64,000 nucleotides of DNA, from NCBI GenBank assembly GCA_946410665.1, contig CAMKBC010000002.1, forward strand, positions 11,926 to 75,925. The letters are read 5' to 3'. Under the pieces are notes generated by a model, which made no database searches, had not been told where the DNA came from, and worked only from the letters and a program-made list of their open reading frames with translations. Positions 2,459 to 44,400 of the stretch are shown in pieces. The stretch's first letter is position 1. The number at the start of each line of letters is the position of its first letter. The stretch comes from an uncultured Clostridia bacterium (lineage in GTDB: Bacteria > Bacillota > Clostridia > TANB77 > CAG-508). The position numbers were made by a program, and so were the translations under genes.

Positions 2459-2679
2459 CATTTTTTAACATATAAAATTGGTAATTGTTTTACATGACGC
2501 AGCATTACGAACTCAAGGGGTTGAAGGATATTTTTGATGCAAGTTTTTAGTGAAGAAAAATAAAATGTAATGTAATAATACTAAAAATTACCATATATAT
2601 TATTTATTATATACGCGTGAGAAAAGTTTTATAGATTTCTTAAAAAAATCTAAATTTTAAACAAAAGAAGGAAAAGAAA

Positions 2680-22365: not shown

Positions 22366-22428
22366 TTGTAATAATGCTATAATATTTTTGTTACGCTTAA
22401 AGCATGAGAATGCTTGCAAGGAGGTTTT

Positions 22429-23442: not shown

Positions 23443-23468
23443 ATCAGAAGTAAATAAGAATTATCAAG

Positions 23469-23499
23469 GGAAATTACGTAAGTAATTTCTCTTTTTTTA
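23469..23499 (+). terminator. Rho-independent terminator
   Basis: The stem gaaattac/gtaatttc has loop gtaa and is followed by tcttttttta. Confidence 0.65.
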
Positions 23500-23591
23500 T
23501 GTACTAAAACAAATAGATGTAATGAGCGCAAACACTACGAAAATAAGGCGTAGAGCATTGTTTTTGTTGATAAAAAACAAAAAGGTTAATA

Positions 23592-23683
23592 ACTGTAACA
23601 TAAAAATTCTCAAAAAAGCCCTAATATATCTATATATTAGAAGCATCAAAAATATTAAGAAATATTTTCAAAGGAGAAGTTTT
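23592..23683 (+). promoter_or_regulatory. Conserved promoter/leader block, copy A, shared with 35353..35430
   Basis: tgtaacaNaaaaNttctcaaaaaa ... (c/g)tatatta(g/t)a(a/g)gcatc.aaa..tattttcaaaggagaa is conserved upstream of both giant genes. Confidence 0.5.
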
Positions 23684-26600
23684 ATGAAAGTAAATCTAAG
23701 AAAGTCGACAAAAACAATTTTAAAAGTTGCAAGTCTTATGATTGTATTGATAACAACAATAGTTGCTATCTGCTTAAACAACACAACTTTTAAAAGCTCT
23801 TTAACAGAAGAGCAACTATTCGAGAACAGAGTAGCAAAGAATTACAACGAGTTAACAAACGATGATAAGGAGACTAATGTACCTAATGTTAAATTTGGTG
23901 CTTATTTTTTACGTGACATGGAAGGCAACAATGTAGCACATATGCTTGATGGAACATGTAAGAGAATAGGCAGTTCAGATGATTTGTATTTTGACATTCA
24001 AGTAAGCGGCGATTCATATATCGACAACGCGAAAATCAGAATTACAAACGCAAACTTTAAAGCGGAATTCAATTATTTGAAAGATGACTACCTAAAATAC
24101 AATTACCAAGGTGTTTATAGTTTAATTGAATTCAATAAAATTGACGGTGGTTCAGAAGAGCAAATCTATGGAAACATACAGTTTACTCCTTTAAGTAATT
24201 ACAATGACTATTCAAAGACAGCAGTTGTTACTTTTACTGCTGACTATCATGATATTTATACAGGAGAAACAGCTCAAGTTGAAAAACAAGTACCAATAAC
24301 TGTTGATTGGTATGGAGATTTAAATACAGTAGTGTTTTCACAAAATAGAGCATATAGTCCTGATGACATTGAGGGTAATACTGTAAATACTTTATTTGAG
24401 ATTAAAGAATATGTAGATGAAACTAAAAAAGATGAAACTTTACTTTTGAAAGATAGAACAATAGAAATTAAAATTCCTAATTTAAGACAATGGGAACCGG
24501 TAACTGCTAGATTAAGTGACGGAAATGCAACATATGATCCTGAAACAAAAACACTTACTTTAACTAAAGAATCTAGATTTGATGAGAGTGGAAATTTAAT
24601 AAGTTCGATAGCTAACAAAACATCATACACAGTGTATATAACTTATCCAGAAGAAGCATATCAATATACAACACTAGTTGGGGCTGATGATATATTTAAT
24701 GGAAAAGAGCAACTTAGCCTAAAAACAACAGTTACAACTCATGCATATAATAATCCTGGGGTAGAATTCGAGAATATTGTTACTTCGGAAAACATTGTAT
24801 ATCCAACAATTAAATTTACTCCACCTTCTGCACCACCAGCACCATTAGGAACAACAGTTGTTGTAACTTATGAACATGAGGATAGTGAAATTTCAATACA
24901 GAGAGTATTAGAAAACTACGACAAGGTAAAAGAAGAAGGTTTTGATGCAGGAACACTAAGTTCATATTTTGATACACATATAACAGTTCAAAGAGGAGCA
25001 ATTAGAGACTTTGGACTTTTGAAAATTGATGAGGAATACGTTAAATTTGGACAAAATGATGTAAGTAAATATCTAAAAGACACAAGCATAAGTTACTATG
25101 GAATCAGCGAGATATTAGAGGACGACGGAAAGATTTTAGTATACAATGCAGAGACTGATGAATTAATAAAAGAAATCGGTATGGATGTCATAAGAAAAAA
25201 TTCATCAATAACTGTTCCTGAAAATGTAGCAAGAGTTAGAATTGAATTGACAAACTTCAAAAAATGTGAAGGAACAACAATTAGAGGAAACCGCATATAT
25301 GCAGGAAATCTAGCTGATATATATGTACATAAAGCATTAGACATTAATGCTATAATTAATGATTTTGAATATTCTACACTAAAGAGTTTATCTAACTATT
25401 ATTCAAAGATAGCAGATAAACTATATCAAAAAGATTCAGGTACATTGGAATATACAACTTCAGCAAGTGATTCTTCGAAATTAAAATATAATAAAACTGA
25501 AGCTATGATAAGAGCATATCCAGCAGCTTTTGGAAATAATGGAGAAATTGATGAAGATGCTGAACAACCAGGAGAAGATATAACTCTTACAGTATCTTCA
25601 AAACATGAACAAGACAGAGCTTATTGGGGTAAAGGTGAATTTGTAGTAGAGTTGCCAGATGAATTCAATTACTTTAATTTAAATAGTGTTGAATCAAGTA
25701 CATGTACAATTAATGGATATGAATACTTTGAAGAAAATGGAAAGAAATTAATAAGAGTTTTTGCAGAAACAAACTATAACATCATAATTACAATTAAAGG
25801 ACGTGTAGTAATAGATCCATTAGCTTCAAACGGAAATAAAGCAATAAGACTTTATTACAAGAACGAAAGTTGCGCAGATTACTATAATGGAAAAGTAAGT
25901 GATAAATATGATGTTGATTTAAATGAGGATACAACAGAAGGAATTGGTTATGCATCAACATATGTAACAGTAACGTCACCTGCAACATTTATTGTTAAGC
26001 AAATGGTAACAAATTTCGATGAAAAAGAATCATTTGTTACAGCACCTAATGTTGCTGAAGTAGACAAAGAAACAAATCATGCAACAATTCAAATTGGTGT
26101 AAAGAATAATAATGCAAGTCCAGTTATAGATTGTTATTTAGTAGGAAAGATTCCATACGAAGGAAACACAAAAGTAAAAACCACAACAGATTTGAAATCA
26201 AAATTCACAGCACATATGACATCAGAAGGTATTATTGTTCCAGAAAACTTAAGAAATGTAACAGTTTACTATTCAGAAAATGATTCGGTTAACTTTAACA
26301 TAGATGATGCATCGAATGGATGGAAGTTAAAAGAAGAAATTACTGATTGGAATAAAGTAAGATCTTTCTTAATCGATTTAAGTAATATAACAATTAGATC
26401 TGGAGACGCCAATCAGGTATTTAAATACAATGTTACAGTTCCAAATGGATTATCATATAATGATGCTTCATACTCTACAGTAGCATCTAAATACAACTTA
26501 CAAACAAATTCAGGAATACTTTATAATAGGGGAACAGAATCACAAAAGACAGGTATAAGAATTGTTAGAAAATACAATCTTGATACAACTTTATACAAAG

Positions 26601-29600
26601 AGACAACAAGTAGAGTGGTGCCAAATGAAACTTACATTGTTGAAGAATTAGATGATGAAGGAAATATTGAAAAGTCAAAAATCGGTAAATCTAATGCAAA
26701 TGGAAAATTTGTAATTAAAAATCTATATGCGGAGAAGAATTATAGAATCCGTCAATTAGAAGCAAATATTAATTATGAAAAAGATGAAAATGTTAGATAT
26801 TTCAGAGCGGACGAAAATGCTGAAGGGAATTTGGTGTTCTCATATGCAAATGAAAATTCTGAATTGTTTAACAACACCCCAAACTTTACAAAGGACAGTG
26901 AAACAAATAAAGATATATTAAATGTTTCGATATGGGAAACACCAAAATATGAAATCATACTTAAGAAATTGGATAGAGCGACAGATGAACCAATTAGCGG
27001 AGTAAACTTCTTATGCTATGATGCCAATACAACTGCTTCTGGAAAAACAGATGACACTGGAAAATTAGTGATGAGTAAATTCTTTGAAGATGCGACTTAC
27101 GTTTTAGAAGAAGTTACAGCTAAAGGATATTACCTACAAGACAGCACAGTTAAATTAGTAAAGAATGCTCAATACAACTATTCAGTAGCAATTGGAAATA
27201 ATGAATTTATAACTTCAGCTAGTGCAACAAATGGTGGTGAAGAACAAGATTTAGCAAGAGTAGAATTAGTATTATACAATGACTCAGTTCCAACATACAC
27301 ATTAAATGTTGTTAAAGTAAAAGAAGGAGCGGAAGCTACTAGATTAGCTGGAGCAGAATTTGAAATTACAAAATACGATGATAGCGAAAAGGAAAAAATT
27401 ACTACAGATGAAAATGGTACAGTAACTGTACAAAATATGTACCAATACAAAGAAGGCTTTGATATCACTGGTAAATATGGTTTACAAGAAATAACAGCAC
27501 CACGTGGATATGTTTTAAATAAAGAATATATCGAGTTTGTTGTTTCAAAAGAAAATGACACACTAAAGATTGACTATAAAGATGAAGAAGGTCTAACTTC
27601 TATCAAAGATACAGTAATTGATGGAAATAATGTAACAATTTATATTCAAGATAAAACATTATTTAAATTGACTAAGACAGATGACGATCAAGCATTAATT
27701 CCAAATGTAGCATTTGTAATTTATGAACTCGATGCAGAAGGCAAACTTCTTGATTATGCAAAAGATGCGAATGGCGAATATGTTGGAACGCAAAATGCAA
27801 GAGGAGCATATGAAGTAAGAACAGATGCAAATGGAGAGATAACGATTCCATTAAGAGATGGCGATTATATGCTATTCGAGGTTGAAGCTCCAGAACAATA
27901 TGAGTACAGCACAACAGGAAGAAGATTTAAAGTAAAGAGCGAAGAGACAACAGGCGAAGCAGGAACAGGAAGTGGAGAAGGAACTGAAACAACAGAAGAA
28001 AAATATACATATGCAGTTCAATACTACTATAACGGACAACGCGATGATACAAAGACAGAAACATATGAGGTAGACAAAGATACAGAAGTTACAACATATG
28101 AAGATAAGGTAGAGGATGGATATGAATTCCAATACGTAACTAAGTTGCCTTATAAAATTAGTTGTGATGATTTAGTAATAGATGTTTATTATGCAACACC
28201 AAAGACACAAACACTAGAAATTAATTACATTGAAGATTTAATTGAATTACAAAGAGCAGTAGATAATGGTAACAATTATGAAGACACAAAGGTTGTTTTA
28301 AATAGGAGTTTAGATTTCAATGATGCGGATTCATATAGAGATGCCGAAGGAACCACATATGGCGACTATAATGAAGACGGTACAACAGAAGGCATTAAGA
28401 AGGAAGTTACTTCAGGCAAGGGATGGAAATCTATTGGTGTAAGAAGCACACAAATTGCTGAAACTGCAAATGGTGATTATGTGTTAGATGGAAATAATAT
28501 AAAACATAATCAATTTGAATATAGCAAATTAAAATACTTTGCAGGAACCTTTGATGGAAACAATAATTCGATAAGTAATATGTATGCTAACTATACAGAT
28601 GAGGCATATAGAGATGATGAATACAAATTTACAGCTTCTAATGGTAACGAATATTCAGATTATCATAGTGCAGCTTTATTTGGCTGGACACATAATGCAA
28701 GTATTATGAATTTGAAATTTAGTGCACATATTTCTGAAAACAGAGGTAATGAATACAACAATTTCAACATGGCAAAAGGTGCGGGTTTGATTGGAAATGC
28801 ATACGGATCAATAAATGTATTTAATGTTGAGAATAGTTTAACGGGTAATTATTCTTATGCTGGTATAATTGGTAGTATAGATCAAAGAATAAATTATTAT
28901 GATAGAGAAAATACAAACATTAATATTCAAGATGTAAAAAACGCGATTTGTATTAGCGAAGATGAAGGTGAAAGAGGTGCAGGGTCTTATTCTTATTTGG
29001 GAGTAATAGGATACATGAAAGCTGCTAGTGCACATGACCCTTCTATTGTAGAGACTACAGAAATAAATAATGTAACTAATGATATAACTAACGATATAAG
29101 CGAAGAAAATTCAAGTGGTAAGTCAGTATCATATATAGGAACAATAGGATTTACTGAAGCAACTACAGATCGTACAAATTATGTAAATGATACATGCGGA
29201 ATATATTCGATAAATAGTAATATTATTACTGATAAAACTTGGAGTTACGAAATTGGCGCCGCAATTGGTTATATTGGAAATAAAAACATATCAGAGTATA
29301 AGATTAATAATATGAAGGCAAAAGTTGATTTTGGCGAAGCTTATTATCTTTCAGGAGCCATAGGAATGGGGTATCCAGGGGAAAGCAGTGGAATATTAAT
29401 CGAAAATTTCGATGTTGAAATTACTCAGACAAAAGAAAATGGCAGTTCATGTCAAGTTGGAGGTGTAATAGGATATTTAGCTTATACGGCCAATTCATCG
29501 GATCAATATTCAATAGGAATTGTAAGTATAAAAAATGGAAAAGGTAAGGTAGACTTAAAAAGAAGTTATATGGCTGGTGGAATAGTTGGCGAAGTATATA

Positions 29601-32600
29601 ACTATAATTTGTCGATTTCAAATGCCATAGCGCAAGGAAAGATACAAAGTAGTGATCAATCTGCAGGAATCGCTGGTTATGTATATTCACCAAAAAATCA
29701 GCTAATTATTGAAAATGTAAAAAACTATGCGGACATAACAGAAAGAGAAAATTCAAGTTCGAGTTACAATGGAGGAATAGTAGGATATTTATGCCCTTCA
29801 TATGCATCAATTAAAAATGCAGTTAATTATGGAACAATATATGGAACATATGATAATGGTGGAATAGTAGGAGATTTATCATCGAGCACTGGAGCTCTTT
29901 TTATAGAAAATGTACATAATTATGGAGATATAATCAATAATGCAAGTTATGGAGATGGACAAGGTGGAATAATAGGATACAGCAGTGGATCATATGTTAA
30001 TATTAAAAACGCAAAAAATTACGGAAAGGTAACAGGATATTACTACGTAGGAGGAATTGTTGGTCGTCAGTCTGGAAATAGAATTGAGTTACTAAACTGT
30101 GAAAACATGGGCGAAATAAGCGGAGATAGGCTATATGAATATGCAGGAGGACTATTAGGAACTAGTTATGGCAGCACGCAAATTGAAAGTTCGTTCAACA
30201 AAGGAACTATTAATGTTGTTGGTGAAAATCAAAGCGAGTGTTATTATATTGGTGGTTTGATTGGTTATCAAGGTGGTAGTAACAACGCCTCTTTATATAT
30301 TAACAATAGTTATAACGAAGGAAATATCAATATTTTGAATAAAAGAATGGTATACGAGACAGGTGGATTAGTTGGATGGTATGGTTCAGGTGTAATTCAA
30401 AACAGCTATAACGCCGGAGATATTAATATTGATTACACTGGGCAAGAATATGGATATGCATATGCTATTGGAGGAATAGGATCTTCTAGTGCTTCATCTG
30501 GATTGGTTAATAATGTAATAAATAAAGGAAATATACATATTAATAGCAAGTATGAAAATTCAACATCTTCCAATATAGGAGGAATACTAGGAAATCAAGG
30601 ACAAATAAGTGTAATGAATGTTATAAACCAAGGAGAAATCGAAATATTTTCTAATGGAGTTGATTATTATAGCGTTGGAGGAATCATAGGTGGAAGTAAT
30701 CAGAATGCAAATATACAAAATGCATATAATACAGGGAATATAACATTGTTGGGTGGCAGATATGCAGAAAGTGATTATCCTGACGAACGTGGATTAGGTG
30801 GAATCGTCGGAACTAACGACGAAGGAGCAATAGTAAATAGATGTTATAATTCAGGAAAAATCGTTTCGATGATATTTACAGGAGGTATCGTAGGATATAA
30901 CAAAGGAACCGTAGTAGATTGTTATAATGAAGGAAAAATAACGTCTTATAAGAAGATGGTAGGCGGTATAGCAGGAAAAAATGAATATGTATTATCTAAT
31001 GTATACAATGTAGGAAATGTAACAGCTAAAAACGAGAATGTAAAAATTGGTCCTATTGTGGGTGAAAGCAGTGACGGAATAGATTACAATGGAAACATTG
31101 AATCACAAGATGTCATAGAGAATGCACATTATAGTGATAAGATAACTGTAATTGGAGGCGTTCAAAATCAAGATGGAATAAAACAAGAAGATAATTACAT
31201 GAAGTCGGAAGAGTTTTACAACACTTTAAATACGCATAATGCATGGACTTATATAGATGATCAATATCCAAAACTAATGATTAGTGCAGGAGAAACAATT
31301 CCAGAAACTACAGAATTAAATATTATAAATGATCATAAGATTTATAATATTTCTACAATGTTAAATAATTCAGAAGGCGGATCAATTACAGGATATGGAC
31401 AAGATGTTTTAGAAGAAGTAAGACATGGAGCAAGCAACACAAAAGCAATTGAAATGATTCCAAATGAAGGATATGAAATTGGAAGAGTTACAATAAATGG
31501 TGAGCAACAAGAGATTACTTTAAATGCAGATGGTTCATACAAGATTGATGTTGGAGAATTACAAAACATAAAAGATGATAAGTTAATATATGTAGAATTC
31601 TTAAAACAAGATCAAATCTTATTAATTGAAAAAGTAGATAAAGATACAGATGAAACACTATCGAATGCAACATTTGATATACAACAAATTGAGAATAGTC
31701 CTATAACAGATGAAATAAGTGAACTTAAAGAATCAAATGTACAAAATGAAAATGCAGCTGATGTTGAAAATCTTGTCGATGAAACAATAGGAAATCCAAC
31801 GATGTCAACAGGAAGCTATTCAAAAAACAATGGTGTTTATACTTTAAATTCAGCATACTATAGATATCAATCAGGCAGATATTGGTACGCGATAAATGGA
31901 CGAATTCCAATTAATTTGAGCGATAAAACAGGTAATTATATTGTTAGATTTGAAAGTGAATATTGGGATAGTGCGTCAATTAATAATTCAAATGGCGAAA
32001 GTGTTGGATATATGGAAAGTCGTGCTGTTGAAGGTAGTCAATATAGTTACACATATCTTTTAACAGGTGGAAAATCGTATTATATACAACTTTATAGAGA
32101 TCAATCAGGAAGTACTTTTAGTAGAAGGTTAGATAACTTCCACGTTTATCCAGTGACAGATAAAGCTTATAATATGACAACAACAGATGAAGGATACTAT
32201 GAAACAACAAATGCAAATGTTCCATGGGCAATATCAGCAGGAAATGTGGAAATTGATTTAACAAATCATCCAGAAGAACATACTATATCAGTTAAGCATA
32301 AGAGTGTAGAAAATTCTAACAGGGAGATAGAATTCGATATAATAGTTAAAAATAGCATCACAGATGCGAAAGTGTATGAAAAAACAGTTTATGCACAAGC
32401 AAATGAACAAACAGATACAATTAGTGTTCCGGGTGGTACAAAATATAATTTAGAATTTCGATATAAGAATCTAGCTGGAAACGCTGGAAAACTTCAAATA
32501 ACAGGAGTTTCAATTGAACTAGATGAATCTAAATTAACTAAAGTAACAAGAACTACAAGTGTTGAAGGTCAAATAAAAGTCCAACTTCCAGTAGGTAAAT

Positions 32601-35212
32601 ATAGGATTACAGAAACAAATGCACCAGAACATTATTTACTAAATACCGAATCTACAGAATATTATGTAGATATAAACAAGGAGAATAAAGTAACAATTCA
32701 AGACACACATAAACCAATAGTAAGAGTACATCATTACTTGATGGAAAACGGACAAGAGACAACAAAGAAAGTTGCTGCAGATGAAGAATACGAAGGCAAT
32801 CTTGATGAAGATTATTACTTCAATCCTAAAGATAAGTTAGTAGGATTATCACTAGCTAAAGATGATAATGGCGAGTTAATAATTCCATCTAATTACAAAG
32901 GAAAATACACTTTAGGAGTAACAGATGTTAACTTCTACTATGAGGCAGACAATATCAAATTGACAATTCATCATTATCAAGAAGGAACACAAACAAAAGT
33001 AGCAGAAGATGAAGTAATTGAGAAAGATGCTGTTGTTGAATTTAAGCAAGACGGTTCATATAAAGTATCAGCAACTGGTACATATAAAGTAGCCGACAAT
33101 GCTAAATATCAAGAATTAACAGCAAGCACATATAACTTAACAAGTTTATACTCATCAGTACATGCGGGATTAGAAATTAGAGACACATTAGAATATAGTT
33201 CGAATGCCGAACTAATTTATAATTACAGCACTAAGAAGTATAGAATTGTAACAAGAGTTATAGAACACGAAGAAGTAGTACCAGATGAGGAAGAAGATGA
33301 TGAAGAATCAGAGGAAACAAATCCAATGACAAACACAACATCTAATGAAATCGAAAATACTACAACAAACGAAACAACAGATGAGAATACAACAAATGAA
33401 ACAACTAACACAACTGAAAACACAACAACAACTAATACAGAAACAACACCAAAGACTAAAACTATTTCAGTAAAAGGTGGAACAATTTCTGGTTATGATC
33501 TTGAATACTATGAAGAATTAGCAAGCAATGCAAATAGTACAAAAGACATCATAGTAACACCAGACAAAGGCTACAAGATCAAAGAAATCAAATTAAATGA
33601 TAATGTTGTTTATGATGCGGATCATACAACGAATGATTTATACACAGTCGAAAATGGCGTTGTTACATTTAACAAATTTAACAATGTAGTTGAAGACAAA
33701 ACAATTACTGTTGAATTTGAAGGTGTAGGATCAATTGTAAAAGTTCATCATATTATAACTGAAGAAGGTAAAGAAGACGTAGAGTACAAGACCGTAGAAA
33801 TTAGAGGAAAAGTTGGTTCAAGATACACAACAGAAGAAATTGAAATTGAAGGATATACATTATATTCAACTTCATTAAATACAACAGGTGAAATTGCAGA
33901 AGAACAAATTGATGTATACTACAATTACAAAGCAAATCCAGAAACAACATATACAATCAGATATTTCTATGACAATACAGAAGATGTAGAACTTGCTGAA
34001 AGAATTGTTGGAAAAACAAAAACAACAGTAACAATGGAAGATATTAAAGCTAAGATTGATGGGCATAAGAAAGATGTTTATGAATTTGAAAGAGCAGAGA
34101 ATATACCATTAATGATTGTTAACGACGTAGATGAATATGTAGTTAAGATTTATTACATTTCTACATTTGGTAAAGTAGTTGAAAAACATATTGATGCAGG
34201 ACACAACACACTTCTATACACAGAGATACATAAAGGTTCTATTGGAACTGCATACAATATCAAATCAAGAAAAATTGATGGTTATACATTACTTGAGAAA
34301 GATATAAATGGTAAGAGTGTTCTACCAACAAATGCAGAAGGAACATATGCAAAAGATGTTATTGATACAGTAATTTATTACTATACAAGAAACACAACAG
34401 TTAAGGTTATATATCAAGATGAAAACGAAACTGAGTTAGATAAAGTAATTATTGAAGGACATGAAGGAGACGAATATACAACAGAAGAGAAGACAATCAA
34501 AGGTTATGAACTTGTTGAAACACCAAAGAATGCAGAAGGTGTAATGTTAGTTACAAAAGATTCAAACGGAAATGACAATACAGAAACTGTAGTAATCTAC
34601 AAATACAAGAAATTAATACCAGCTGATGTTGTAGAGAAATATGTTGATATCAACACAAATGAACCTGTTGAAGAAATAACACACAAAGGTGAAATTGATG
34701 AAGAATATGAAATTACTCCAAAGACAATCGAAGGATATACATTAATAACAAAAGATAAAGATGGAAATGATATTCTTCCAACAAATACAAAAGGAAAGTA
34801 TTCAACAACTAAAGTAGAAGTAATCTACTATGTAGCAATGAATGCAACTGTAAGAGTTCAACATATTAACTTAATAACAAGTGAAAAGATGGCAAAAGAT
34901 GTTGTAATTGAAGGTTATGAAGGTAAAGAGTACGAAACAGAACCAATGACATTCGAGGGATATGAATTAACAGGTACTCCTGAAAATGCAAAAGGAAGAA
35001 TGCAAGTTACTTTAGATGAAGATGGAAATAAAGTAACAGAATTAGTAGTTAAATACTATTATGCCGAAAAACTAGAAGGTAAATTACCACAAACAAGTGA
35101 AACAAACTCAAAACAAGCAATTTTAATAGCAATACCTTTTGTAGTACTAATTAACTTAGGATTAGCAACAATAGCATTTAAGAAGAACAAAAAAGAAGAT
35201 ATGAACAAATAA
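23684..35212 (+). CDS. Giant sortase-anchored adhesin (about 3842 aa): signal anchor, Cna-B-like domains, GLUG-like repeat block, Ig-like repeats, Thr/Asn-rich linker, about 6-8 MucBP repeats, LPQTSE sorting signal
   Basis: The ATG at 23684 has RBS aaggag. The upstream 54 codons in the ORF track have no RBS and overlap the conserved leader. Cna-B-like segments read TDDTGKLVM...EEVTAKGYY. The GLUG block reads VGGIVGRQSG, AGGLLGTSYG and IGGLIGYQGG. MucBP repeats include V.V.Y.D..G.......I.G.EG.EY.T.......GYEL....NA.G.....D..V.YYY. The C-terminus is LPQTSE, then a TM segment, then KKNKK. Confidence 0.85.
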   Translation: MKVNLRKSTKTILKVASLMIVLITTIVAICLNNTTFKSSLTEEQLFENRVAKNYNELTNDDKETNVPNVKFGAYFLRDMEGNNVAHMLDGTCKRIGSSDDLYFDIQVSGDSYIDNAKIRITNANFKAEFNYLKDDYLKYNYQGVYSLIEFNKIDGGSEEQIYGNIQFTPLSNYNDYSKTAVVTFTADYHDIYTGETAQVEKQVPITVDWYGDLNTVVFSQNRAYSPDDIEGNTVNTLFEIKEYVDETKKDETLLLKDRTIEIKIPNLRQWEPVTARLSDGNATYDPETKTLTLTKESRFDESGNLISSIANKTSYTVYITYPEEAYQYTTLVGADDIFNGKEQLSLKTTVTTHAYNNPGVEFENIVTSENIVYPTIKFTPPSAPPAPLGTTVVVTYEHEDSEISIQRVLENYDKVKEEGFDAGTLSSYFDTHITVQRGAIRDFGLLKIDEEYVKFGQNDVSKYLKDTSISYYGISEILEDDGKILVYNAETDELIKEIGMDVIRKNSSITVPENVARVRIELTNFKKCEGTTIRGNRIYAGNLADIYVHKALDINAIINDFEYSTLKSLSNYYSKIADKLYQKDSGTLEYTTSASDSSKLKYNKTEAMIRAYPAAFGNNGEIDEDAEQPGEDITLTVSSKHEQDRAYWGKGEFVVELPDEFNYFNLNSVESSTCTINGYEYFEENGKKLIRVFAETNYNIIITIKGRVVIDPLASNGNKAIRLYYKNESCADYYNGKVSDKYDVDLNEDTTEGIGYASTYVTVTSPATFIVKQMVTNFDEKESFVTAPNVAEVDKETNHATIQIGVKNNNASPVIDCYLVGKIPYEGNTKVKTTTDLKSKFTAHMTSEGIIVPENLRNVTVYYSENDSVNFNIDDASNGWKLKEEITDWNKVRSFLIDLSNITIRSGDANQVFKYNVTVPNGLSYNDASYSTVASKYNLQTNSGILYNRGTESQKTGIRIVRKYNLDTTLYKETTSRVVPNETYIVEELDDEGNIEKSKIGKSNANGKFVIKNLYAEKNYRIRQLEANINYEKDENVRYFRADENAEGNLVFSYANENSELFNNTPNFTKDSETNKDILNVSIWETPKYEIILKKLDRATDEPISGVNFLCYDANTTASGKTDDTGKLVMSKFFEDATYVLEEVTAKGYYLQDSTVKLVKNAQYNYSVAIGNNEFITSASATNGGEEQDLARVELVLYNDSVPTYTLNVVKVKEGAEATRLAGAEFEITKYDDSEKEKITTDENGTVTVQNMYQYKEGFDITGKYGLQEITAPRGYVLNKEYIEFVVSKENDTLKIDYKDEEGLTSIKDTVIDGNNVTIYIQDKTLFKLTKTDDDQALIPNVAFVIYELDAEGKLLDYAKDANGEYVGTQNARGAYEVRTDANGEITIPLRDGDYMLFEVEAPEQYEYSTTGRRFKVKSEETTGEAGTGSGEGTETTEEKYTYAVQYYYNGQRDDTKTETYEVDKDTEVTTYEDKVEDGYEFQYVTKLPYKISCDDLVIDVYYATPKTQTLEINYIEDLIELQRAVDNGNNYEDTKVVLNRSLDFNDADSYRDAEGTTYGDYNEDGTTEGIKKEVTSGKGWKSIGVRSTQIAETANGDYVLDGNNIKHNQFEYSKLKYFAGTFDGNNNSISNMYANYTDEAYRDDEYKFTASNGNEYSDYHSAALFGWTHNASIMNLKFSAHISENRGNEYNNFNMAKGAGLIGNAYGSINVFNVENSLTGNYSYAGIIGSIDQRINYYDRENTNINIQDVKNAICISEDEGERGAGSYSYLGVIGYMKAASAHDPSIVETTEINNVTNDITNDISEENSSGKSVSYIGTIGFTEATTDRTNYVNDTCGIYSINSNIITDKTWSYEIGAAIGYIGNKNISEYKINNMKAKVDFGEAYYLSGAIGMGYPGESSGILIENFDVEITQTKENGSSCQVGGVIGYLAYTANSSDQYSIGIVSIKNGKGKVDLKRSYMAGGIVGEVYNYNLSISNAIAQGKIQSSDQSAGIAGYVYSPKNQLIIENVKNYADITERENSSSSYNGGIVGYLCPSYASIKNAVNYGTIYGTYDNGGIVGDLSSSTGALFIENVHNYGDIINNASYGDGQGGIIGYSSGSYVNIKNAKNYGKVTGYYYVGGIVGRQSGNRIELLNCENMGEISGDRLYEYAGGLLGTSYGSTQIESSFNKGTINVVGENQSECYYIGGLIGYQGGSNNASLYINNSYNEGNINILNKRMVYETGGLVGWYGSGVIQNSYNAGDINIDYTGQEYGYAYAIGGIGSSSASSGLVNNVINKGNIHINSKYENSTSSNIGGILGNQGQISVMNVINQGEIEIFSNGVDYYSVGGIIGGSNQNANIQNAYNTGNITLLGGRYAESDYPDERGLGGIVGTNDEGAIVNRCYNSGKIVSMIFTGGIVGYNKGTVVDCYNEGKITSYKKMVGGIAGKNEYVLSNVYNVGNVTAKNENVKIGPIVGESSDGIDYNGNIESQDVIENAHYSDKITVIGGVQNQDGIKQEDNYMKSEEFYNTLNTHNAWTYIDDQYPKLMISAGETIPETTELNIINDHKIYNISTMLNNSEGGSITGYGQDVLEEVRHGASNTKAIEMIPNEGYEIGRVTINGEQQEITLNADGSYKIDVGELQNIKDDKLIYVEFLKQDQILLIEKVDKDTDETLSNATFDIQQIENSPITDEISELKESNVQNENAADVENLVDETIGNPTMSTGSYSKNNGVYTLNSAYYRYQSGRYWYAINGRIPINLSDKTGNYIVRFESEYWDSASINNSNGESVGYMESRAVEGSQYSYTYLLTGGKSYYIQLYRDQSGSTFSRRLDNFHVYPVTDKAYNMTTTDEGYYETTNANVPWAISAGNVEIDLTNHPEEHTISVKHKSVENSNREIEFDIIVKNSITDAKVYEKTVYAQANEQTDTISVPGGTKYNLEFRYKNLAGNAGKLQITGVSIELDESKLTKVTRTTSVEGQIKVQLPVGKYRITETNAPEHYLLNTESTEYYVDINKENKVTIQDTHKPIVRVHHYLMENGQETTKKVAADEEYEGNLDEDYYFNPKDKLVGLSLAKDDNGELIIPSNYKGKYTLGVTDVNFYYEADNIKLTIHHYQEGTQTKVAEDEVIEKDAVVEFKQDGSYKVSATGTYKVADNAKYQELTASTYNLTSLYSSVHAGLEIRDTLEYSSNAELIYNYSTKKYRIVTRVIEHEEVVPDEEEDDEESEETNPMTNTTSNEIENTTTNETTDENTTNETTNTTENTTTTNTETTPKTKTISVKGGTISGYDLEYYEELASNANSTKDIIVTPDKGYKIKEIKLNDNVVYDADHTTNDLYTVENGVVTFNKFNNVVEDKTITVEFEGVGSIVKVHHIITEEGKEDVEYKTVEIRGKVGSRYTTEEIEIEGYTLYSTSLNTTGEIAEEQIDVYYNYKANPETTYTIRYFYDNTEDVELAERIVGKTKTTVTMEDIKAKIDGHKKDVYEFERAENIPLMIVNDVDEYVVKIYYISTFGKVVEKHIDAGHNTLLYTEIHKGSIGTAYNIKSRKIDGYTLLEKDINGKSVLPTNAEGTYAKDVIDTVIYYYTRNTTVKVIYQDENETELDKVIIEGHEGDEYTTEEKTIKGYELVETPKNAEGVMLVTKDSNGNDNTETVVIYKYKKLIPADVVEKYVDINTNEPVEEITHKGEIDEEYEITPKTIEGYTLITKDKDGNDILPTNTKGKYSTTKVEVIYYVAMNATVRVQHINLITSEKMAKDVVIEGYEGKEYETEPMTFEGYELTGTPENAKGRMQVTLDEDGNKVTELVVKYYYAEKLEGKLPQTSETNSKQAILIAIPFVVLINLGLATIAFKKNKKEDMNK
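28700..31050 (+). repeat. GLUG-like repeat block (about 25 units) in the 3842-aa protein
   Basis: Recurrent N(Y/K)G.(I/V)....(Y/N)(V/A)GG(I/L)(V/I)G units occur every 25-30 aa. Confidence 0.65.
33722..35075 (+). repeat. MucBP-like repeat array (6 clear units; 2 more degenerate units lie at about 32718-33020)
   Basis: Examples are VKVHHIITEEGKEDVEYKTVEIRGKVGSRYTTEEIEIEGYTL...IDVYYNY, and ATVRVQHINLITSEKMAKDVVIEGYEGKEYETEPMTFEGYELTGTPENAKGRMQV....LVVKYYY. Confidence 0.7.
35084..35101 (+). other. Sortase sorting-signal motif LPQTSE, followed by a hydrophobic segment and a basic tail
   Basis: tta cca caa aca agt gaa encodes LPQTSE, followed by ...AILIAIPFVVLINLGLATIAFKKNKK. Confidence 0.7.
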
Positions 35213-35229
35213 GAATAACTAAATAAAAA

Positions 35230-35265
35230 GGAGGGAGATAGAGATAATCTATCTCCTCTTTTTTA
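35230..35265 (+). terminator. Rho-independent terminator
   Basis: The stem ggagatag/ctatctcc has a 7-nt loop and is followed by tcttttttat. Confidence 0.65.
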
Positions 35266-35352
35266 TGTTTGCAAAACCTTAAAGCACGAAATCTTTACGG
35301 GATTAAAGGTTTAAAGCTGATTTTGGTAGTTAATTATAACAATGTATTAGAG

Positions 35353-35430
35353 ATGTAACAGAAAATTTCTCAAAAAAACAGTAATAAACCTGTATATTAT
35401 AGGCATCGAAAGTATTTTCAAAGGAGAATA
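35353..35430 (+). promoter_or_regulatory. Conserved promoter/leader block, copy B, paralogous to 23592..23683
   Basis: About 75% nucleotide identity over about 80 nt, including tgtaaca, ttctcaaaaaa, gtatatta, gcatcgaaa and tattttcaaaggagaa. Confidence 0.5.
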
Positions 35431-35479
35431 CTATGATGTGAAAATATTCATATCAAGCAAAAGAAAAAAGGAGAAAACA

Positions 35480-38400
35480 ATGAAAACACTTAAACTTAAA
35501 AAAGTAATAACAATAGTTACAATGTTTTTATTAGCAATTGCTCTAATAATAGTTGGAGAAACTAAGAGAGTTGAACTATCAGAGATTACAAAACAAAAAT
35601 ATCTTGATAACAACAATCAAACAAAAATCACATGGGGTGATTTAACTGGAAATGGCTATGATGCAACAGCATACAATACTGGCTGGAACGATGCTAGTAC
35701 AGGTATGGTGTTTAATGGCACGAGCTCATATGCCCAAATCAAAGAAGTTAACTTAGAGCAGTTCACTTTAGAAGTTGCATTTAGAGCTTCTAACTTATCA
35801 AAAGAAGGAGAACAAACTTTATTAGCAAACTTCCAAGAAGGTGGATATGGTTTATTAATCAGAGATAAAAGATTAATAGGTCAAGCATATTTAGACGGAG
35901 AATGGAAAACTATTTCAACAGAAGATGGTGAAGGAACAGTTAGTGATGTTTTAGAAGAAAATATCATGTATGTTGCTCATCTTACTTTTGATGGAACAAA
36001 TCTATCTTTGTATCTAGATGGTGAGTTAATTGGAACTGTAACAGGTACGACATTAACATATCCAAAGAATAATACAATCATGATGCTTGGTGAAAATCCA
36101 GACGGAACAAATGCTGTAGAAGATAAATACTTAGAAGGAACAATTCATGAAGCAAAGATTTATAGTAAGAGTTTAAGTGATAATGAAATAGAAAACAATT
36201 TAGAAATTGTTGAACGTGTATATGCAGATGGTGTAAGTGGAAGATTAAACAACATCGAAGGCTATGTTCAAGATGGATTATTAATGGATCTTGAAGGTAG
36301 AAAAATCGAACGTACACAAGAAAGAATTGCAGATTTAAGTTTAAGAACATTCATAACAAAAATAAATGGTGAAGAATTATCAACATCTAGAGAACCAAAT
36401 GTGGAAATCGTAGATGGAAAATTTAATTACAAACATTCAAAGAATAAAGTTAATGTTGTAAAAGGTGATGTTATAACATACAAAATCAGAGTTTACAACG
36501 AAGGTAAAGAAGCAGCAAATGCAGAGAAGGTTGGAATTTATTTACCTGAAGAAATGAAGGTAATCGGATTAGATGATAGCGAGAGTGTAAATTCAAAATA
36601 CTTATGGACACAAGATGAAGGAAACGTATTCATCACAAAATATTTATCAAACCAAGAAATTAAAAAGAATGGTGTTAAGGTAATTGAAAACAGAAGTATA
36701 CCAGCGTATTCAGAAAATGCAGGAATACAATACAAGGACATTGAATTAGAAATATTAGTAAACGAAGATATAACAATTGCCGATGGTTACAGATTAGTTG
36801 TTGTAGCAGAGATTATGAAAGAGAGTCAAAATGATAGTGACTCAACACCACGTAATTTCAACATGACACAAGCAGATATTAAAACATACAAAAAAGCAGA
36901 AGCAGAACAATCATCAGCAGAAAGCTACATTGCTGGAAAAGAAGATGATGACGATTTTGAAAATGTATATGTAAATAAAACATACGATGCAAAAATTGAG
37001 TTAAACAAAATCAGTATAGCTAACGAAAAAAATATTGGTGGCGGAAAAATTAAGATTACAAACAATGTTTCTGACAGTGATATTAGATTAAAAATTTATA
37101 ATAAAGCAACAATGTCAGAATTAGAAAAAGACGAAAATGGATATGTTGTTCCACCACAAGAAGGTGTATTAATCGGACTTTCAAGATTACAAAAGAATGT
37201 TGAAAATGAAATTTTAATCGAAGAAGAATCTGCAGCAGAAGGATATGTAAAAGTAATTGATAGCACAAAATTAAAAGTTAAGATAAATGCAAATGAAGAA
37301 ATTGAAGCTATCATTACAAGTGTTGTAGAAAAGAAAATTAAAGAAGACGGAACTGTTGAGACACAAGAGTTATCAGGTTCAATCGAAAAAGATGCATTCT
37401 TAAGAGACGAAGATCAAAATGGCTTAGTTACAAAAGATGGAATCGCAACAGGTCAAAGAGTTGAATACAAGATTGGTGAAGATGGCGAATGGAAGAGATA
37501 CACAGGATCATTCAAACTACAAACAAATAAAACAATTTATGCAAGAAGTACAGACGGAACAAATTACAGTGGTACAGCAATCAAAGTTGTAGATAACATT
37601 GATAAGATTGCACCAACAATAGATACAATTGCAGACAAAGAAGAAACACTAGATATTGAAACTTCAATTGAATTCCATGTTACAGATACAAGCACAGAAG
37701 ATTATGGTGCTTCAGGAGTTTCTAAATTTGGAATCAGCGAAAACGATGTTGATGAACCAGAAGAATGGTTAGATGCGGACAAGACAACAGACTTTACAGG
37801 AACAGTAGAGCATATTGAAGATGAAGGTACATTCAGAATTTGGGTAAAAGACGTTGCAGGAAACATTGCAATCTCAAATGAATTTAGAATTGATTTACCA
37901 GATATCTCAGTTGCAAAAATTACAGCAATTGTAGATAGAGATGGAAATGAAATCACAAGTTTAATTAATACAGAGTACTACACATTAGAATCATGTTTCG
38001 CAACAATACCAGAAGGTGCTACTGCAACTGTTCAAGTAATTCATAGAATTTACAACGAAGCAAATGTTCTTGATGGAAACAAAACAGTAACACTAGATTT
38101 AAACGGATACACAATTGGAAACAGAAGCAGAAGAGAACCAACATTCACAATCGGAAGTGAAAACTCAGATGCAAGTTTAACAGTTATAAACAACAAAGGT
38201 AGGGGTGGTGTTTCTAGTAACAACACAGAAGCTATAGTTATAAATGACGGAAGCATCTTCACATTGGGCGAAGATAACAAGAGAGTTGTACAAAGCCAAC
38301 CAAAGATTACAGGTAAGACAACAGGTATCGATGTAAAGAATGGTGGTGTGTTTAATTTCTATGATGGAAACATCACAGCTGAAAAAGCTATTTATGGAAA

Positions 38401-41400
38401 TGTAAGTTCAACACCAATTGGATACAATGCATTCATCGAAGATTCAACAACAGATGAATTACAAACAGCAACATTACAAGTTATATCAAACGTTGAAGCA
38501 AGAATCGGTAGAAAGATGTACACATTACTAGAAGATGCTATCGCTGATTGCCAAACAAAATATGGAACAGATGGTTCACAAGTAGAAGTTGTTTTATTAA
38601 AGAACATTGCTAAAGATATGACAATCGAGATTGCAGAGAATCAAAATATCAAATTAGATTTAAACGGACATGATTTTACAACAGTAACAAATGGATACGT
38701 AGTTGATAATAAAGGTAAGTTTGAATTATTTGATAGTTCTGTAATGACAGGAAGTTATGATTATAAAGTTGAAGCTGAGGATACATCAAGAGTATCAAGA
38801 AATGGTGGAAGCAATATTTCTACAAATGGATTCACAGGTGTACAAAAATACAAAGAATTAGCTTTCAATTTCGACATTGAAGAATATGGTACATACATGT
38901 TCTCTATATCAGGTATTTACATGAGTAGAGAATCAGATATCTATTTAGATGATAGCGATACAAGTATGTACAACTTTGCAGAAAGAACATATGGTGCAGA
39001 GTACACAACAGTAAATGTTATATTAGATAACCTAGATCCAGGAACACATAGACTAAGAGTTGTTAACAATGCAGAAGGTGGAGAACAACCAATCATTGAC
39101 TACTTCGAAGTAAGTAACAACAAAGGATCAGGAAGAATTTATAGTACAACAAATCACGTAATTCACAACTGGAATTTTGATGAGAGAGTAACAGACATCA
39201 GCAAAATTGATACAGTTGATTATGAAGAATTAATTACAGATGAAAAAGTAAGTATACACAATGCTTATAGACATTCAAGAACATGGACAGATGATTTAAG
39301 TGTATATAGAGATGAAGACAATTCAATTGCATTAAATGAAACAACATGTGAAGATTGGTCAGCAGGATACATTGAAATTGATTTAACAGATAAAGAAGTA
39401 AAACCATATTTAATTCAATTTGACTATCATGCAAAATCAACTGGAAATAGAAGATTAGATATGTACTTCTCAGCTTATGAATTTGGTGCATATGATAGAG
39501 AAGGTAGAATTCTTTATAGAGATGGCGGAAATTTTGATCTTAATGAAACTTATAAGGCATATGTAACTGGTGGATCTAAACACTATATTCATTTAGCAAT
39601 GTATAAGAATAGATATTGCAATAACGAATTTGATTTTAGAGTAAAAAGCATTAAATTAGTTGAGGTTAATGATTTCAACATGGCGCAAATGACAATCACA
39701 TCAGGAATTATCGACACACAAAAAACAGGTACATATGAAGAAAGAACAGGTGGTATCTTTAATGAAGGTAACCTTATTGTAAAAGGTGGTAGATTTACAA
39801 CAGCACTTCAAACAGGAGACGATGGTAGAAAATGCGGTATTAGAAACTATGGCTTTGTAACAATACAAGATGCTCAGTTTGATGGAATGATTCATGGTAT
39901 CTATAATGGATGGTACAACAATTCAAAGTACGGAGTAATGACGCCAATAGTAAAAATAAATAATGTTAATATGAATTGTACTCATATAAATTATATGGGA
40001 GCTGGCCACTCAATTGCCGAAATCAAGAAGGGTAAATTTAATTCTAAATCTTCGTATGAAGTATGGCAAAACTACGAAGATTCAACTGTTATTATTAATC
40101 CTGAATCAGATGAAGATGTTCAATTTATGAATGGTGGCGACTGGGAAATCTATATGAGTAGAGATAACGGAAAGCAACTTTATATTAAAGGTGGAACATT
40201 CAGACATGCTGGAGGCATTATTTATTCATATGATGATTACTGGAGAGGTTCACAAAGATGGATGTATAACCAAATAACTATTGATGGCGGAGATTTTCAA
40301 TCAACTTCAGGTGAAATGATAGCAACATCTTACAGTGCAAAGATCATTGTTAACGGAGGAAAATTTGTAACATCAGGAGATAGAATATTTAGAATAAACA
40401 ACTTCATGGATGTTACAATTAATGATGGTGAATTCTATGCTACAAGAGGAACTGGTAATATTCTTTACTGTGATTATTATGACAACAGCTACAGTAAATT
40501 AACAATTAATGGAGGTTATTTCACTAACGTAACAGAAGCAAATAATAGCTATTGGACATTATTCCAATTCTATTATGGAGCACATGTAACAATTAATGGT
40601 GGCGAGTTACATGCTGGTAGTACAGTATTCCATGAAAACAGAGGCAATCTAGACTTAAAGATTTTAGGTGGAAACATAACATCAAATGTTGGACCACTAA
40701 CAAATACAGATAATCATGATGGTGGATGCAGTGTTGTAATTGGAACTAAAGATGGTAATGTAGAAATGCAACCAGAAATTAAAGTTTCTACTTCATATCC
40801 GTTAGTTACAAATAACAATGCAACAGTAAAATTCTATGATGGTGTGTTGTATGCACAAAAGAATCCATTCTTAAATTGTAATCTAGAAGAAATTGAAGAC
40901 AACACAAATGTTGTTTCAGAAGATTACGGAGAAAGAGGATTAAAGGTTTGGCTAGGAGATAATTCTTCACAAGAGAATGTAGAAATATATGAATGTCCAG
41001 ACAATCAAAGTTTAGTTGGAACAAAGTATTCAACAATTCAAAAAGCATTAGATCAATGCAGTACAGATGCAGGAGATAATGTAACAAAGATTAGATTATT
41101 AAAAGATTATTCTAATTTTGAAATTAACACGATTAAAAAAGGACAAAATGTAATTATCGATCAGGATGCATATATTTTATGGAATTATAGAAACAACGGA
41201 TTTGATAACTATGGAAAAGTAGAATTTATAAATACACAAAATAATTTATATAGTAGAGAAATAAAAAACACAGAATTAGTAAGCAATCACATATATCCAG
41301 AGAGAGATTACAATTTCACAGACTATAGAATTATAAAAGATAAGAGCGGAAGAAATAATGATTTAGAGTTGTTATGCGCAGGAAAAGATGCTGATACAAA

Positions 41401-44400
41401 CGGAATTGCTTGCAATACTTATACTACAGGCGTAATTAGAAATTGGAATATAACAGATGCAGAACAAAAAGCAATGGAAATTGTATTAAAGACAACAACT
41501 AGAGAAAACACGTGTATTTTCATGTCACCAAATGGACAACATATGGCATTTGGCGTATGGAACAATACTTTCTTACTATCATGCAAAAGTAACAACAATC
41601 AAACTTTTGTGATACCAGATGATTTCTATGATGGCACAATGAAAGATATTGTAATAAACTACAACAGTGAAACCAACCAATATACAGTTTACTATAACGG
41701 AAGAAAGTTAGAAACTAGAGGATCTGGTAACTGGTGGGGAAATGGTAATAGTTATGGAGCTTTCTTTGGAAGAAGACCAAATCAAGATAACTTCCATGGA
41801 ACAGTATTTGCATTAAGACAATATAGTGAAAACTTAACAGAAGAACAAATCGCAACAAATTATGAATCAGCACAAGAAAAATACGTAGATGGAGAAGATG
41901 AAGATAACTATACAACAGATAATCTTATATTAGATATAGATTCTTCAACAATTGATTGGGAAAAAGTTGCATTGGCAAGCCATAATGTTAATAACTACAC
42001 GACGAACTCATGGGGATATCAAAAAATTGACTTAAGAGATCAAGCGGGAAGATTCTTAATTACAGTAAATGCAGAAACTAGAATATCTAACATTAGTGGA
42101 CGTACATCATGGGCGCATGCAAGAATATTAACAGACACTTCGATAAGAGGTGAAAGTGATACAACAGGAAGATTTATTCATGTTACTGGTGATACAACTG
42201 CAACAGACTATACTTATGAAGTAGAAGGTGGCAAGATATATTACTTACATTATGGTTTCTATCACAATAGTCAAGCACTAGAAACATTTACTATTAACAG
42301 CATTAAGGTAACAACAATACAACAAGGAAAAATCTTTAGTAGAAATTGTAATCTATTAAAGAATGGTAGATTGGTAGAGGAAGAATCATGGAAAGACTTG
42401 AGTGGAAATAATAGACATGGTGTGTTAGTAGGACCAGTATGGGATGATGACAACAGAGGATTAGTATTTGATGGAAATGATTATGTAAGAATTGCTCAAA
42501 TGAATTATAGACAGTTCACATTTGAATCAACATTTGAATTGAGCAGTATACATAATGGATGGAATACAGTTATGTCTAACTACCATTCTGGTGGTTGGGG
42601 ATTATCTGTAAATGGATCAGATAAGAAATTATATGCCAGAGCTTATATTAATGGAGATTATAGAAATATACCATTAGAAATTCCAATTGAAGTAAATACC
42701 AAATACACAGCAGGTATAATGTATGATGGCCATATGATGTATCTATATGTAAATGGAATGGTAGTAAATACATGGAAATCAACAGATTATGACACATACA
42801 AACATTGGCCAGATAGTTCAACTTATGTTGTACTAGGAGGAGATGCTGCAGGAAGCGGTGCTGATGGAGAATGGCTAAATGGAAAAGTATATTCAGCAAG
42901 AGGATATAGTAGAAAATTAACAGATTTAGAAATCGCGCAAAATTATCAAAAAGATAGAGCGTTGTATTATGGAGATGATGCAGAGTACATTGAAAATATC
43001 ACAGGCTACGTAGAAAAAGATAGAATATTAGATTTCGAAGGAAGACATCATGCTGATAGTTTAGATAATTCTATGTATGCAAAATTAGGTGCTAATTTAT
43101 ACATAGAGGAAAGAGGTTTAAAAAATAGAGACGTTATAAAAAATGCTGGAACCTTAGATATCGATACATATAAATTTATAGTAGATGGAAGAAATACAAA
43201 AACTATTAGAAACGACAATGATGGTATAGTTAATATTTATGGTTGGGATTATGACTCAACTTCATATGAGAACACAGTTGTATTTGATAATCATAGAAGA
43301 GGTACAATTAATTACTATGATGGAAATACAGAAGCAACGACATCAGAAAGTTCTATCATTTTCAACAACCTAAACAATTCAACTGCTAATATATACGATG
43401 GTATTATTAGAAAAAATGGTAGATATGTAATGAACCAAAATGGTGGTTATAGTACTATGAATATTTATGGTGGTACTATTACATGTGAAGGTAGATGGGA
43501 TGGCGAGACAAGAATACTTTATAATTATGAAAATGGTACATTAAATATTTCTGGAGGAATTATTAACTATTATGCAACGTCAAACTATTCTACACGATAT
43601 GGTATTGATAATATAAATAGTGCAGAGTTCCATATTACTGGAGGAAAGATAAATTGGCAATCAACATACTGTAATTACTCGCGTGTAATCCGTAATGCTA
43701 GTCCAAAACATAGTTCGATAGAAAACTATGAGATATATGCTAGAGAATTAAATACGAGCACAGATTTAATACATTTCTTAAATGAAGGTACAAATTCAGA
43801 GATAACTATTAAGAATTCAAAATTCTGGCAAGATGCACATACTACTAGTTGGAACAACCATGCGGCTATCTATAACAACGCATCAAATGCGGTTGTTAAC
43901 GTAGAAAACTTCATATCAGATACTATTTGGATTGGAATTAACAATCCTAACGGAACAGTAAATGTAAAAAATTGTAACATCTTAAACTCTGTTACAGGTA
44001 TTAATATTAGTGCTGGAGCAGTAAATTGTGATGGTGTTAATGTAGAATCTACAACAACAGGATTAAATCAAACCGGAGGAACATTACATGTATATGGAAA
44101 TAGTAGAATTACAAGCACAACAAATGGTGCAAATGTAACAGGTGGAACATTCATATTAGGACAAGAAGGTGCTAATAGTGAAGATGAAAATGAACCAATT
44201 GTTGATATTAATAAGCCATATATTCAAGGTGTAAATTATGGTGTAAACAATACAGCAACATTCAAGTTCTATGATGGTAGAATAAAAGCAAATGATGGAA
44301 AATCAATAACAGGAAATATTACAGCAAAAGAGGCTGGATACCAAGTAAAAGTAATTAAATATACTGAAGGTGAATCAGGAAATGAAATTGCAAAAGAAGA

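Follow-up and report, generated by a model that had tools for sequence, protein, structure and literature searches.

The 64,000-nucleotide (nt) stretch of contig CAMKBC010000002.1 analysed here (hereafter, the window) comes from an uncultured Clostridia bacterium and holds a chromosomal adhesin island of a low-GC (31.5%) Firmicute. The island contains a sortase, MucBP and LRR adhesins, a G5 wall hydrolase, and an OmpR-family two-component system. Its two giant adhesin genes, referred to as gene 1 and gene 2, both terminate in an LPQT(S/N) sortase signal, and each is preceded by a similar block of noncoding sequence (copy A and copy B, respectively), which is the subject of this analysis. A strong intrinsic terminator lies ahead of each gene, so genes 1 and 2 are separate transcription units, and each therefore needs its own promoter within the 190–220 nt in which the block lies.

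When the two intergenic regions were aligned locally, 23594–23678 matched 35354–35428, with 64 of 85 columns identical (75.3%), a single 10-nt indel, and 85% identity over the ungapped columns. The alignment score was 69, whereas dinucleotide-preserving shuffles gave a mean of 23.0 (standard deviation 3.2, maximum 40), and none of 2000 shuffles reached 69. No other pair drawn from the window's 17 intergenic regions scored as high; the second-best pair (score 48) was simply two terminators. The word TGTAACANAAAANTTCTCAAAAAA occurs exactly twice in the window against 0.01 occurrences expected, and the longest exact run shared by A and B is 16 nt, tattttcaaaggagaa (also given as TATTTTCAAAGGAGAA). 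An earlier reading made from the letters alone (the sequence-only reading) had described the two upstream regions as about 75% identical and as a genuinely duplicated cassette. Both statements are borne out, and chance similarity of AT-rich sequence is ruled out by the shuffled controls. Of the words it listed as shared, tgtaaca (23594 and 35354), ttctcaaaaaa (23607 and 35367), gcatc.aaa, and tattttcaaaggagaa are present in both copies, whereas gtatatta is exact in copy B only and the common word is tatatta. The block that it delimited includes the core region, but its 5' edge was set too short: weaker homology continues about 60 nt further upstream to CAYTACG at 23533 and 35293, and the full homology is the whole stretch from the upstream terminator to the ribosome-binding site (RBS), about 150 nt. 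The coding 5' ends, which had been called unrelated, indeed show no detectable relationship, and BLASTP matches only the C-terminal ~800 amino acids. The paralogous 3' ends share 67% amino acid identity over the last ~200 residues, 73% nucleotide identity, and 68% identity at fourfold degenerate sites, with nucleotide repeat matches of 74–78%.

About 150 kb of related metagenome sequence was compared with the window (individual sequences are cited by L numbers). Alignment of the window copies with these relatives divided the control region into three parts, namely an upstream module, a 46-nt core with the architecture TGTAAY-N9-CTMA-N20-TATATT, and a leader (Table 1). The CAYTACG of the upstream module is invariant in A, B, and C types (type C is described below), and no consensus structure was found for this module as RNA. 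The sequence-only reading had called the block a promoter/leader cassette shared by both genes. The common tattttcaaaggagaa is the working RBS of gene 1, but its gene-2 counterpart is a fossil followed by a two-codon mini-ORF; gene 2 uses a second, similar RBS and an ATG located 47 nt downstream. In the gene-2 orthologues, this first RBS reads AAGAAA in L051 and AAGAGA in L059, and the segment is absent in L060. Judging from these orthologues, the first gene-2 RBS is a fossil of an ancestral start and has no shared leader function. The TGA of its mini open reading frame (mini-ORF; 35422–35441 region) is kept in all three B-type orthologues although the RBS decays. A comparable fossil, GAGG...ATG GGT TTC GTA AAA ACC TAA, is seen in the D-type leader of L062. 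The copy-A spacer 23522–23683 has no stop in the reading frame of gene 1 and would add 54 codons, beginning with the ATG at 23522, which we attribute to chance. A coding extension of gene 1 (ORF 23522–35212, open in the window) was rejected, as L054 and L055 carry an in-frame stop and there is no RBS.

Table 1. Positions in the window of the two giant adhesin genes, their control regions, and associated features.
Feature	Position	Strand	Remarks
Gene 1	23684..35212	+	3842-aa wall-anchored adhesin; SpaA, GLUG, 5 MucBP domains; LPQTS anchor; corrected start ATG 23684
Gene 2	35480..52345	+	5621-aa wall-anchored adhesin; Laminin_G_3, 13 MucBP domains; LPQTN anchor; corrected start ATG 35480
Rho-independent terminator of upstream G5 / cell-wall-hydrolase gene	23466..23493	+	12-bp stem and T-run; 0.0 expected in shuffles
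Terminator of gene 1	35233..35257	+	Precedes gene 2
3' end of gene 1 (MucBP repeats and anchor)	34604..35199	+	Paralogue of gene 2 segment 51740-52305; second end of the duplicated unit that shows homology
Copy A upstream module	23533..23593	+	CACTACGAAAATAAGG...TTTTT...; weakly kept between copies
Copy B upstream module	35293..35353	+	CTTTACGGGATTAAAGG...TTTTG...; counterpart of copy A module
Copy A 46-nt core	23594..23639	+	TGTAAC 23594-23599; TTCTCA and A-tract 23607-23617; TATATT 23633-23638
Copy B 46-nt core	35354..35399	+	TGTAAC 35354-35359; TTCTCA and A-tract 35367-35378; TATATT 35393-35398
Copy A leader	23640..23683	+	Working RBS AGGAGA 23672-23677; gene 1 ATG at 23684
Copy B fossil RBS and mini-ORF	35422..35441	+	AGGAGA 35422-35427; ATG ATG TGA 35433-35441; homologous to gene 1 RBS and start
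Working RBS and start of gene 2	35469..35482	+	AGGAGA 35469-35474; ATG 35480; orthologous genes begin here
Copy C	2503..2610	+	CATTACG 2503; TGTAAT 2566; CTAA 2581; TATTAT 2605-2610; weaker support than A and B
WalR/VicR-like response regulator	53443-54192		1.1 kb downstream of gene 2, immediately beyond the adhesin island
Partner histidine kinase, short, PAS	54236-55606		Best matches PnpS / WalK

Relatives were recovered via protein and DNA routes: A-type copies in L051, L054, and L055, B-type copies in L051 and L059/L057, a gene-2 orthologue in L060, and a distant gene-1 orthologue in L052 (53% amino acid identity). A strict-pattern search of JGI metagenomes gave five matches, of which L055, L057, and L059 are true; the other two, L056 (coding) and L058 (tandem repeat), are chance matches. 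In species-representative genomes, TGTAACA-N6-TTCTCAAAAAA gave 49 matches across all phyla, none of which extends past the seed, and these were also discarded as chance. The seed pattern also caught an unrelated dispersed repeat of >100 nt, starting TGTAACAATAAATTTCTCAAAAAAAGCTTGACAG, which is shared by L027, L037, and L045 of a Holosporaceae metagenome-assembled genome (JAISZX01).

All 11 cores begin with TGTAAC, TGTAAT, or TGTAAA. TATATT occupies core positions 40–45 in A, B, L060, and L052, and TATTAT or TAATAT stands there in C, D, and L063. The distance from TGTAA to TATATT is exactly 33 nt in all orthologues (L051, L054, L055/L059, L060, L052), and the core has no indels save one homopolymer base in the noisy long-read contig L051. 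In the A lineage, the window and L054 are 89% identical in the core, compared with 61% in the upstream module, 35% in the spacer 5' of the module, and 72–85% at fourfold sites of the neighbouring genes. Between L054 and L055, the core is identical (46/46), the upstream module 59% (36/61), and the spacer 5' of the module 38% (13/34). The L052 core aligns with A without gaps at 32 of 46 positions (70%), against a background maximum of 29 over ~128,000 46-mers of the window, and the remaining L052 spacer is not alignable. Between A and B types, the cores are 83–87% identical, versus 51–66% for the upstream module and 68% at fourfold sites of the paralogous 3' ends. In L060, the gene-2 orthologue (82% amino acid identity) follows a Zn-ribbon protein gene rather than gene 1, and the same module and core are found at 1877–2192; as they are retained in a different neighbourhood, the control region moves together with its gene. 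That the L060 core resembles A is accounted for by derived substitutions specific to B, at core positions 8, 13, and 39. Sequence comparison thus indicates that the core is under purifying selection, because of the footprint among orthologues and its survival in the distant orthologue L052; the comparison of the A and B paralogues alone would be insufficient.

The sequence-only reading had named TGTAACA and TTCTCA as candidate regulator or sigma factor sites. TGTAACA fares well as a candidate recognition site, since the box is kept (as TGTAAY or TGTAAA) at a fixed distance to a -10-like hexamer in every lineage recovered. For TTCTCA the outcome is mixed: CT.A is retained in the distant copies (L052, C, and D), but the remainder is lost, and the element lies 20 bp from the -10-like hexamer, too far for a -35 element.

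Further copies upstream of other surface-protein genes, which had been suggested as a search, were also found, namely copy C, copy D in L062, and a C-type copy in L063. Copy C is upstream of a 471-aa MucBP/SpaA gene (ATG 2680) that heads the operon of a 2768-aa LRR adhesin. An nhmmer profile matched 2503–2587 with 15.1 bits; 3000 shuffled versions of that spacer reached 5.7 at most, and none of the window's other intergenic regions exceeded -1.3 bits. Copy D, just outside the window (L062:14-58), has TGTAAC, TTCTAA, and TATTAT in the same register and precedes the tandem paralogue of the copy C unit, a 486-aa MucBP gene and a 2699-aa LRR gene. The C-type orthologue in L063 keeps CTACGAACTCAAGGG, TGTAAT, CTAA, and the -10-like TAATAT. 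The pattern TGTAAY-N9-CTMA-N20-TATWWT, written after the sites had been seen, has exactly three matches in the window versus 0.01 expected. Pairwise alignments of copy C were not significant, its support being the profile search and the register. The element is absent from the distant adhesin homologues L064 and L065 (31–33% amino acid identity). Taken together, both giant adhesin genes carry a diverged copy of one ancestral control region, and two neighbouring adhesin operons probably do so as well. The shared region is real, selectively maintained, and made by duplication of whole units, and to this extent it is a fairly ordinary by-product of gene duplication that challenges no current concept.

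In the C/D-type leaders, a small hairpin is located about 25 nt upstream of the RBS (window 2632–2652; L062 ~70–95; L063 ~200–225). Its stem shows compensatory substitutions (TAGATTT/AAATCTA, GGTTT/AAACC, and AAGTTT/AAACTT), which suggests a real RNA structure in those mRNAs. A D-type region in L063 (100–248) has a GC-rich insertion of ~33 nt (CTTCCGCAGTCCATAAATCGGGCAGGCTGGTCC) between the GTAACA box and TATTAT, and the usual spacing is broken there. The tandem two-gene module itself, a small MucBP gene (486 or 471 aa) followed by a giant LRR_5/SpaA adhesin gene (2699 or 2768 aa), is duplicated (window 99–12469; L062:127-19796), and the C-terminal ends share 85% DNA identity (2289–2390 vs 11984–12085).

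A scan of regions A, B, and C with the sigma-70 consensus gave no plus-strand promoter candidate. In the same scan, the upstream region of porG, used as a control, gave an 11/12 match (TTGACT-17-TATAAT), so the organism uses normal promoters elsewhere. TATATT (5/6 of TATAAT) is the sole invariant -10-like hexamer in the whole spacer, and there is no conserved alternative upstream. On balance we favour, with some reserve, the reading that the core is an inherited and constrained promoter, dependent on an activator or an alternative sigma factor, followed by a short leader. On this reading, whole adhesin transcription units were duplicated together with their 5' control regions, and the block would be what these paralogous regions have preserved best. 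TATATT would act as the -10 element, with transcription starting near 23645 and 35405. Relative to this start, TGTAAY would lie at about -51 to -46 and TTCTCA at -38 to -33, with the A-tract over the nominal -35 position; CTMA and the A-tract would together span about -36 to -28 at a fixed spacing to TGTAAY. An activator or an alternative sigma factor would recognise the TGTAAY and CTMA boxes, and all adhesin units with the core would answer to the same factor. We infer the promoter identity, the start site, the dependence on a trans-acting factor, and the co-regulation from sequence; co-regulation of genes 1 and 2, which the sequence-only reading had also proposed, is plausible.

Several points weigh against this promoter model. 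The label 'promoter' comes from position and conservation only. A TTGACA-like -35 element at 16–18 bp is absent; by eye, the nearest sequences score 3/6 (TCAAAA, 17-bp spacing) and 4/6 (TTCTCA, 20-bp spacing). In A-type copies, the RBS and AUG are complementary to the core's 5' half, a feature that is sensible only if that half is transcribed. The excess of core over synonymous identity between A and B (38/46 vs 36/53) is not statistically compelling, and a recombination breakpoint, instead of selection, may account for part of the abrupt L054/L055 contrast of 100% vs 59%. Support for copies C and D is weak: taken alone, their cores do not rise above window background (28–30/46 for copy C), and the three-box pattern is post hoc.

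If the core is a factor-dependent promoter, the profile and the three-box pattern would give a sequence handle for the full set of surface proteins that are jointly switched on in this uncultured gut or rumen bacterium, and the core would be a concrete DNA probe for identifying the regulator. The locus also illustrates cleanly how giant adhesin genes evolve: promoter/leader and anchor end persist, but the passenger region, and even the start codon, is exchanged for another, and a fossil RBS remains. A wider proposal is that TGTAAY-N9-CTMA-N20-TATATT defines a dedicated 'adhesin regulon' promoter class of an uncultured AT-rich gut or rumen Firmicute, to be read by a so far uncharacterised factor (an activator or an alternative sigma factor, perhaps the adjoining WalR-like regulator); in the gene-1 lineage, the same bases, if transcribed, may add a second layer by masking the RBS and start codon. 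We regard this proposal as rather doubtful.

A plainer explanation is that the block is a relic of tandem duplication, that is, an ordinary weak constitutive promoter and RBS without a dedicated regulator or constraint on boxes. The genes are clearly duplicates, as the 73% nucleotide identity of their 3' ends shows, the A and B cores (83%) are only moderately above the 68% at fourfold sites, and promoters of AT-rich Firmicutes often have poor -35 elements. It is nevertheless unlikely, as the core is far better kept than the adjacent spacer, survives ungapped at 53% protein identity where the rest of the spacer cannot be aligned, and recurs with the same architecture ahead of other adhesin operons.

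The complementarity within copy A could instead mean that the block is a transcribed 5' leader with its promoter further upstream, in which CAUAAAAAUUCUC pairs with GGAGAAnUUUUAUG and hides the RBS and start codon until temperature, a protein, or a small RNA opens the helix. The copy-A helix, of 7+5 bp, connects CAUAAAAAUUCUC (23599–23611) with GGAGAAGUUUUAUG (23673–23686). Fold z-scores against shuffles are -3.5 (A) and -4.4 (B), and all eight A, B, and L060 sequences share UUCUC:GGAGA as the closing helix of the minimum-energy fold, although their leaders differ in length. The duplex between core and RBS surpasses its shuffled counterparts in the A type (nominal p = 0.003–0.03), but not in B (p = 0.09–0.56), L060 (0.29), L052 (0.83), C (1.0), or D (0.44), all of which keep the boxes and their spacing despite having no excess complementarity. 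Both arms are invariant and there is no covariation. Upstream of the block there is no conserved -10 or -35 element, whereas the internal TATATT is invariant. An Rfam search gave no gathering-level match in the window, and the matches at E<=1 were only terminator-like or chance, which also counts against a leader. We thus consider a leader function of the whole block improbable, and the RBS-masking helix is possibly an add-on of the A lineage.

A specific version of the promoter model would make TGTAAY(A) a half-site for the WalR/VicR-like OmpR-family regulator encoded near gene 2, activating from about -50. The operator of WalR/VicR (YycF) is TGTWAH-N5-TGTWAH, refined in S. mutans to TGTWAHA-N4-TGTWAHA, and in that species VicR binds the promoters of wapA, gtfB/C, and gbpB, among other genes for surface and adhesion functions (PMC4168254). 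All variants at the present locus (TGTAAC/T/A, mostly with a following A) fit the half-site TGTWAH(A), and the best NCBIfam match of the regulator is YycF/WalR, with 315 bits; this score, however, is below the family cut-off of 340, and the kinase scores better as PnpS. The B-type copies have TGTATT-N5-TGTAAC, an 11/12 match via an upstream half-site, and the distant adhesin homologue L065 (31% amino acid identity) has a perfect TGTAAT-ATAAT-TGTAAT about 170 nt upstream, followed by TAATAT (~205–235). On the other hand, A, L060, L052, C, and D show no conserved second half-site, and TGTWAH-N5-TGTWAH with <=1 mismatch occurs in the window at the chance rate (46 observed vs 45.3 expected). A 6-mer that fits one of many consensus sequences compared is also weak evidence. 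The system thus resembles WalR/VicR in the half-site, including the A at the seventh position, in its surface and adhesion targets, and in the regulator beside gene 2, but the defining direct repeat is missing from most copies, and we hold this assignment to be quite improbable. Genes for cell-wall hydrolases are classic WalR targets; the G5 / cell-wall-hydrolase gene is preceded by a 48-nt spacer with two overlapping one-mismatch WalR matches (22367–22394), which are not significant alone.

Adhesins are often phase-variable, and in A-type copies an imperfect inverted repeat (CATAAAAATTCTC / GAGAAnTTTTATG) flanks a 62-bp segment carrying the -10-like hexamer, but an invertible promoter is hardly credible and was rejected, because the B, C, D, and X copies lack this repeat, known switches are far longer than the segment, the window contains no recombinase gene, and the four independent A-type assemblies all show one orientation.

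Among known systems, the promoter model comes closest to promoters that serve one regulon of paralogous surface-protein genes, examples being the internalin genes under PrfA, the targets of VicR/WalR, and the upstream homology boxes. In Listeria, promoters of internalin genes (inlA/inlB and other LRR/LPXTG genes) carry the PrfA box, a 14-bp palindrome (TTAACANNTGTTAA) centred near -41. As in that case, in which one activator jointly activates its targets, paralogous genes for wall-anchored adhesins here have a common short box upstream of a poor -35 element; unlike it, there is no palindrome, TGTAAY would lie near -50, and no Crp/Fnr-type regulator is seen in the window. The Borrelia lipoprotein families with an 'upstream homology box' and the Mycoplasma vlp/vsa promoters also show upstream homology across paralogous surface-protein genes, and are tied to plasmid-borne paralogy or to phase or antigenic variation via repeat tracts or recombination. 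They share with our locus a promoter and leader that were duplicated with the genes and are more similar than the replaced coding 5' ends, but no variable tract or exchange is seen here. SigX, an extracytoplasmic function (ECF) sigma factor, uses promoters with TGTAAC at -35 and CGAC at -10. The hexamer TGTAAC is identical, but no copy has a CG-containing -10 element 16–18 nt downstream, and the AT-rich TATATT lies 33 nt away instead. An ECF/SigX promoter was therefore rejected; core positions 23–30 read AAGCCCTA in A, AAACAGTA in B, and AAGATAAA in L052, without a conserved CG.

Other known elements were compared by eye and rejected. The SigH/ComX cin-box TACGAATA resembles the CAYTACGAA of the upstream module, but there is no T-tract or -35 partner. 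The CodY box matched at <=9 of 15 positions, and sigma-54 (-24/-12) promoters, cre, TnrA/GlnR sites, CRP/FNR-type palindromes, LytTR repeats, and a MerR-type 19–20-bp spacer with an internal dyad had the wrong spacing or lacked key bases.

The sequence-only reading had further proposed that the duplicated block provides homologous substrate for recombination between the paralogs, and this found no support. The longest identical run is 16 nt, in sequence of 75–85% identity, and that in the 3' homologous coding part is 17 nt. Identity tracts of this size are short for RecA-type recombination. In three strains, the A and B cores are ~83–87% identical to each other, and each type is 89–98% identical to its own orthologues; as the two types are equally diverged in all three and closer to their own orthologues, there is no sign of exchange or gene conversion.

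Two further features of the window were recorded. The 425-aa protein encoded at 59092–60369, which has no Pfam match, contains Lys/Ala/Thr-rich tandem repeats with a 12–15-nt periodicity in the DNA and resembles a histone-H1-like tail. At 18740–18810, upstream of a gene for a WG-repeat protein (18831), there is a terminator- or attenuator-like hairpin (CTGATATATT ... AATATATCAG, then T6) with TGTAACA in its loop.

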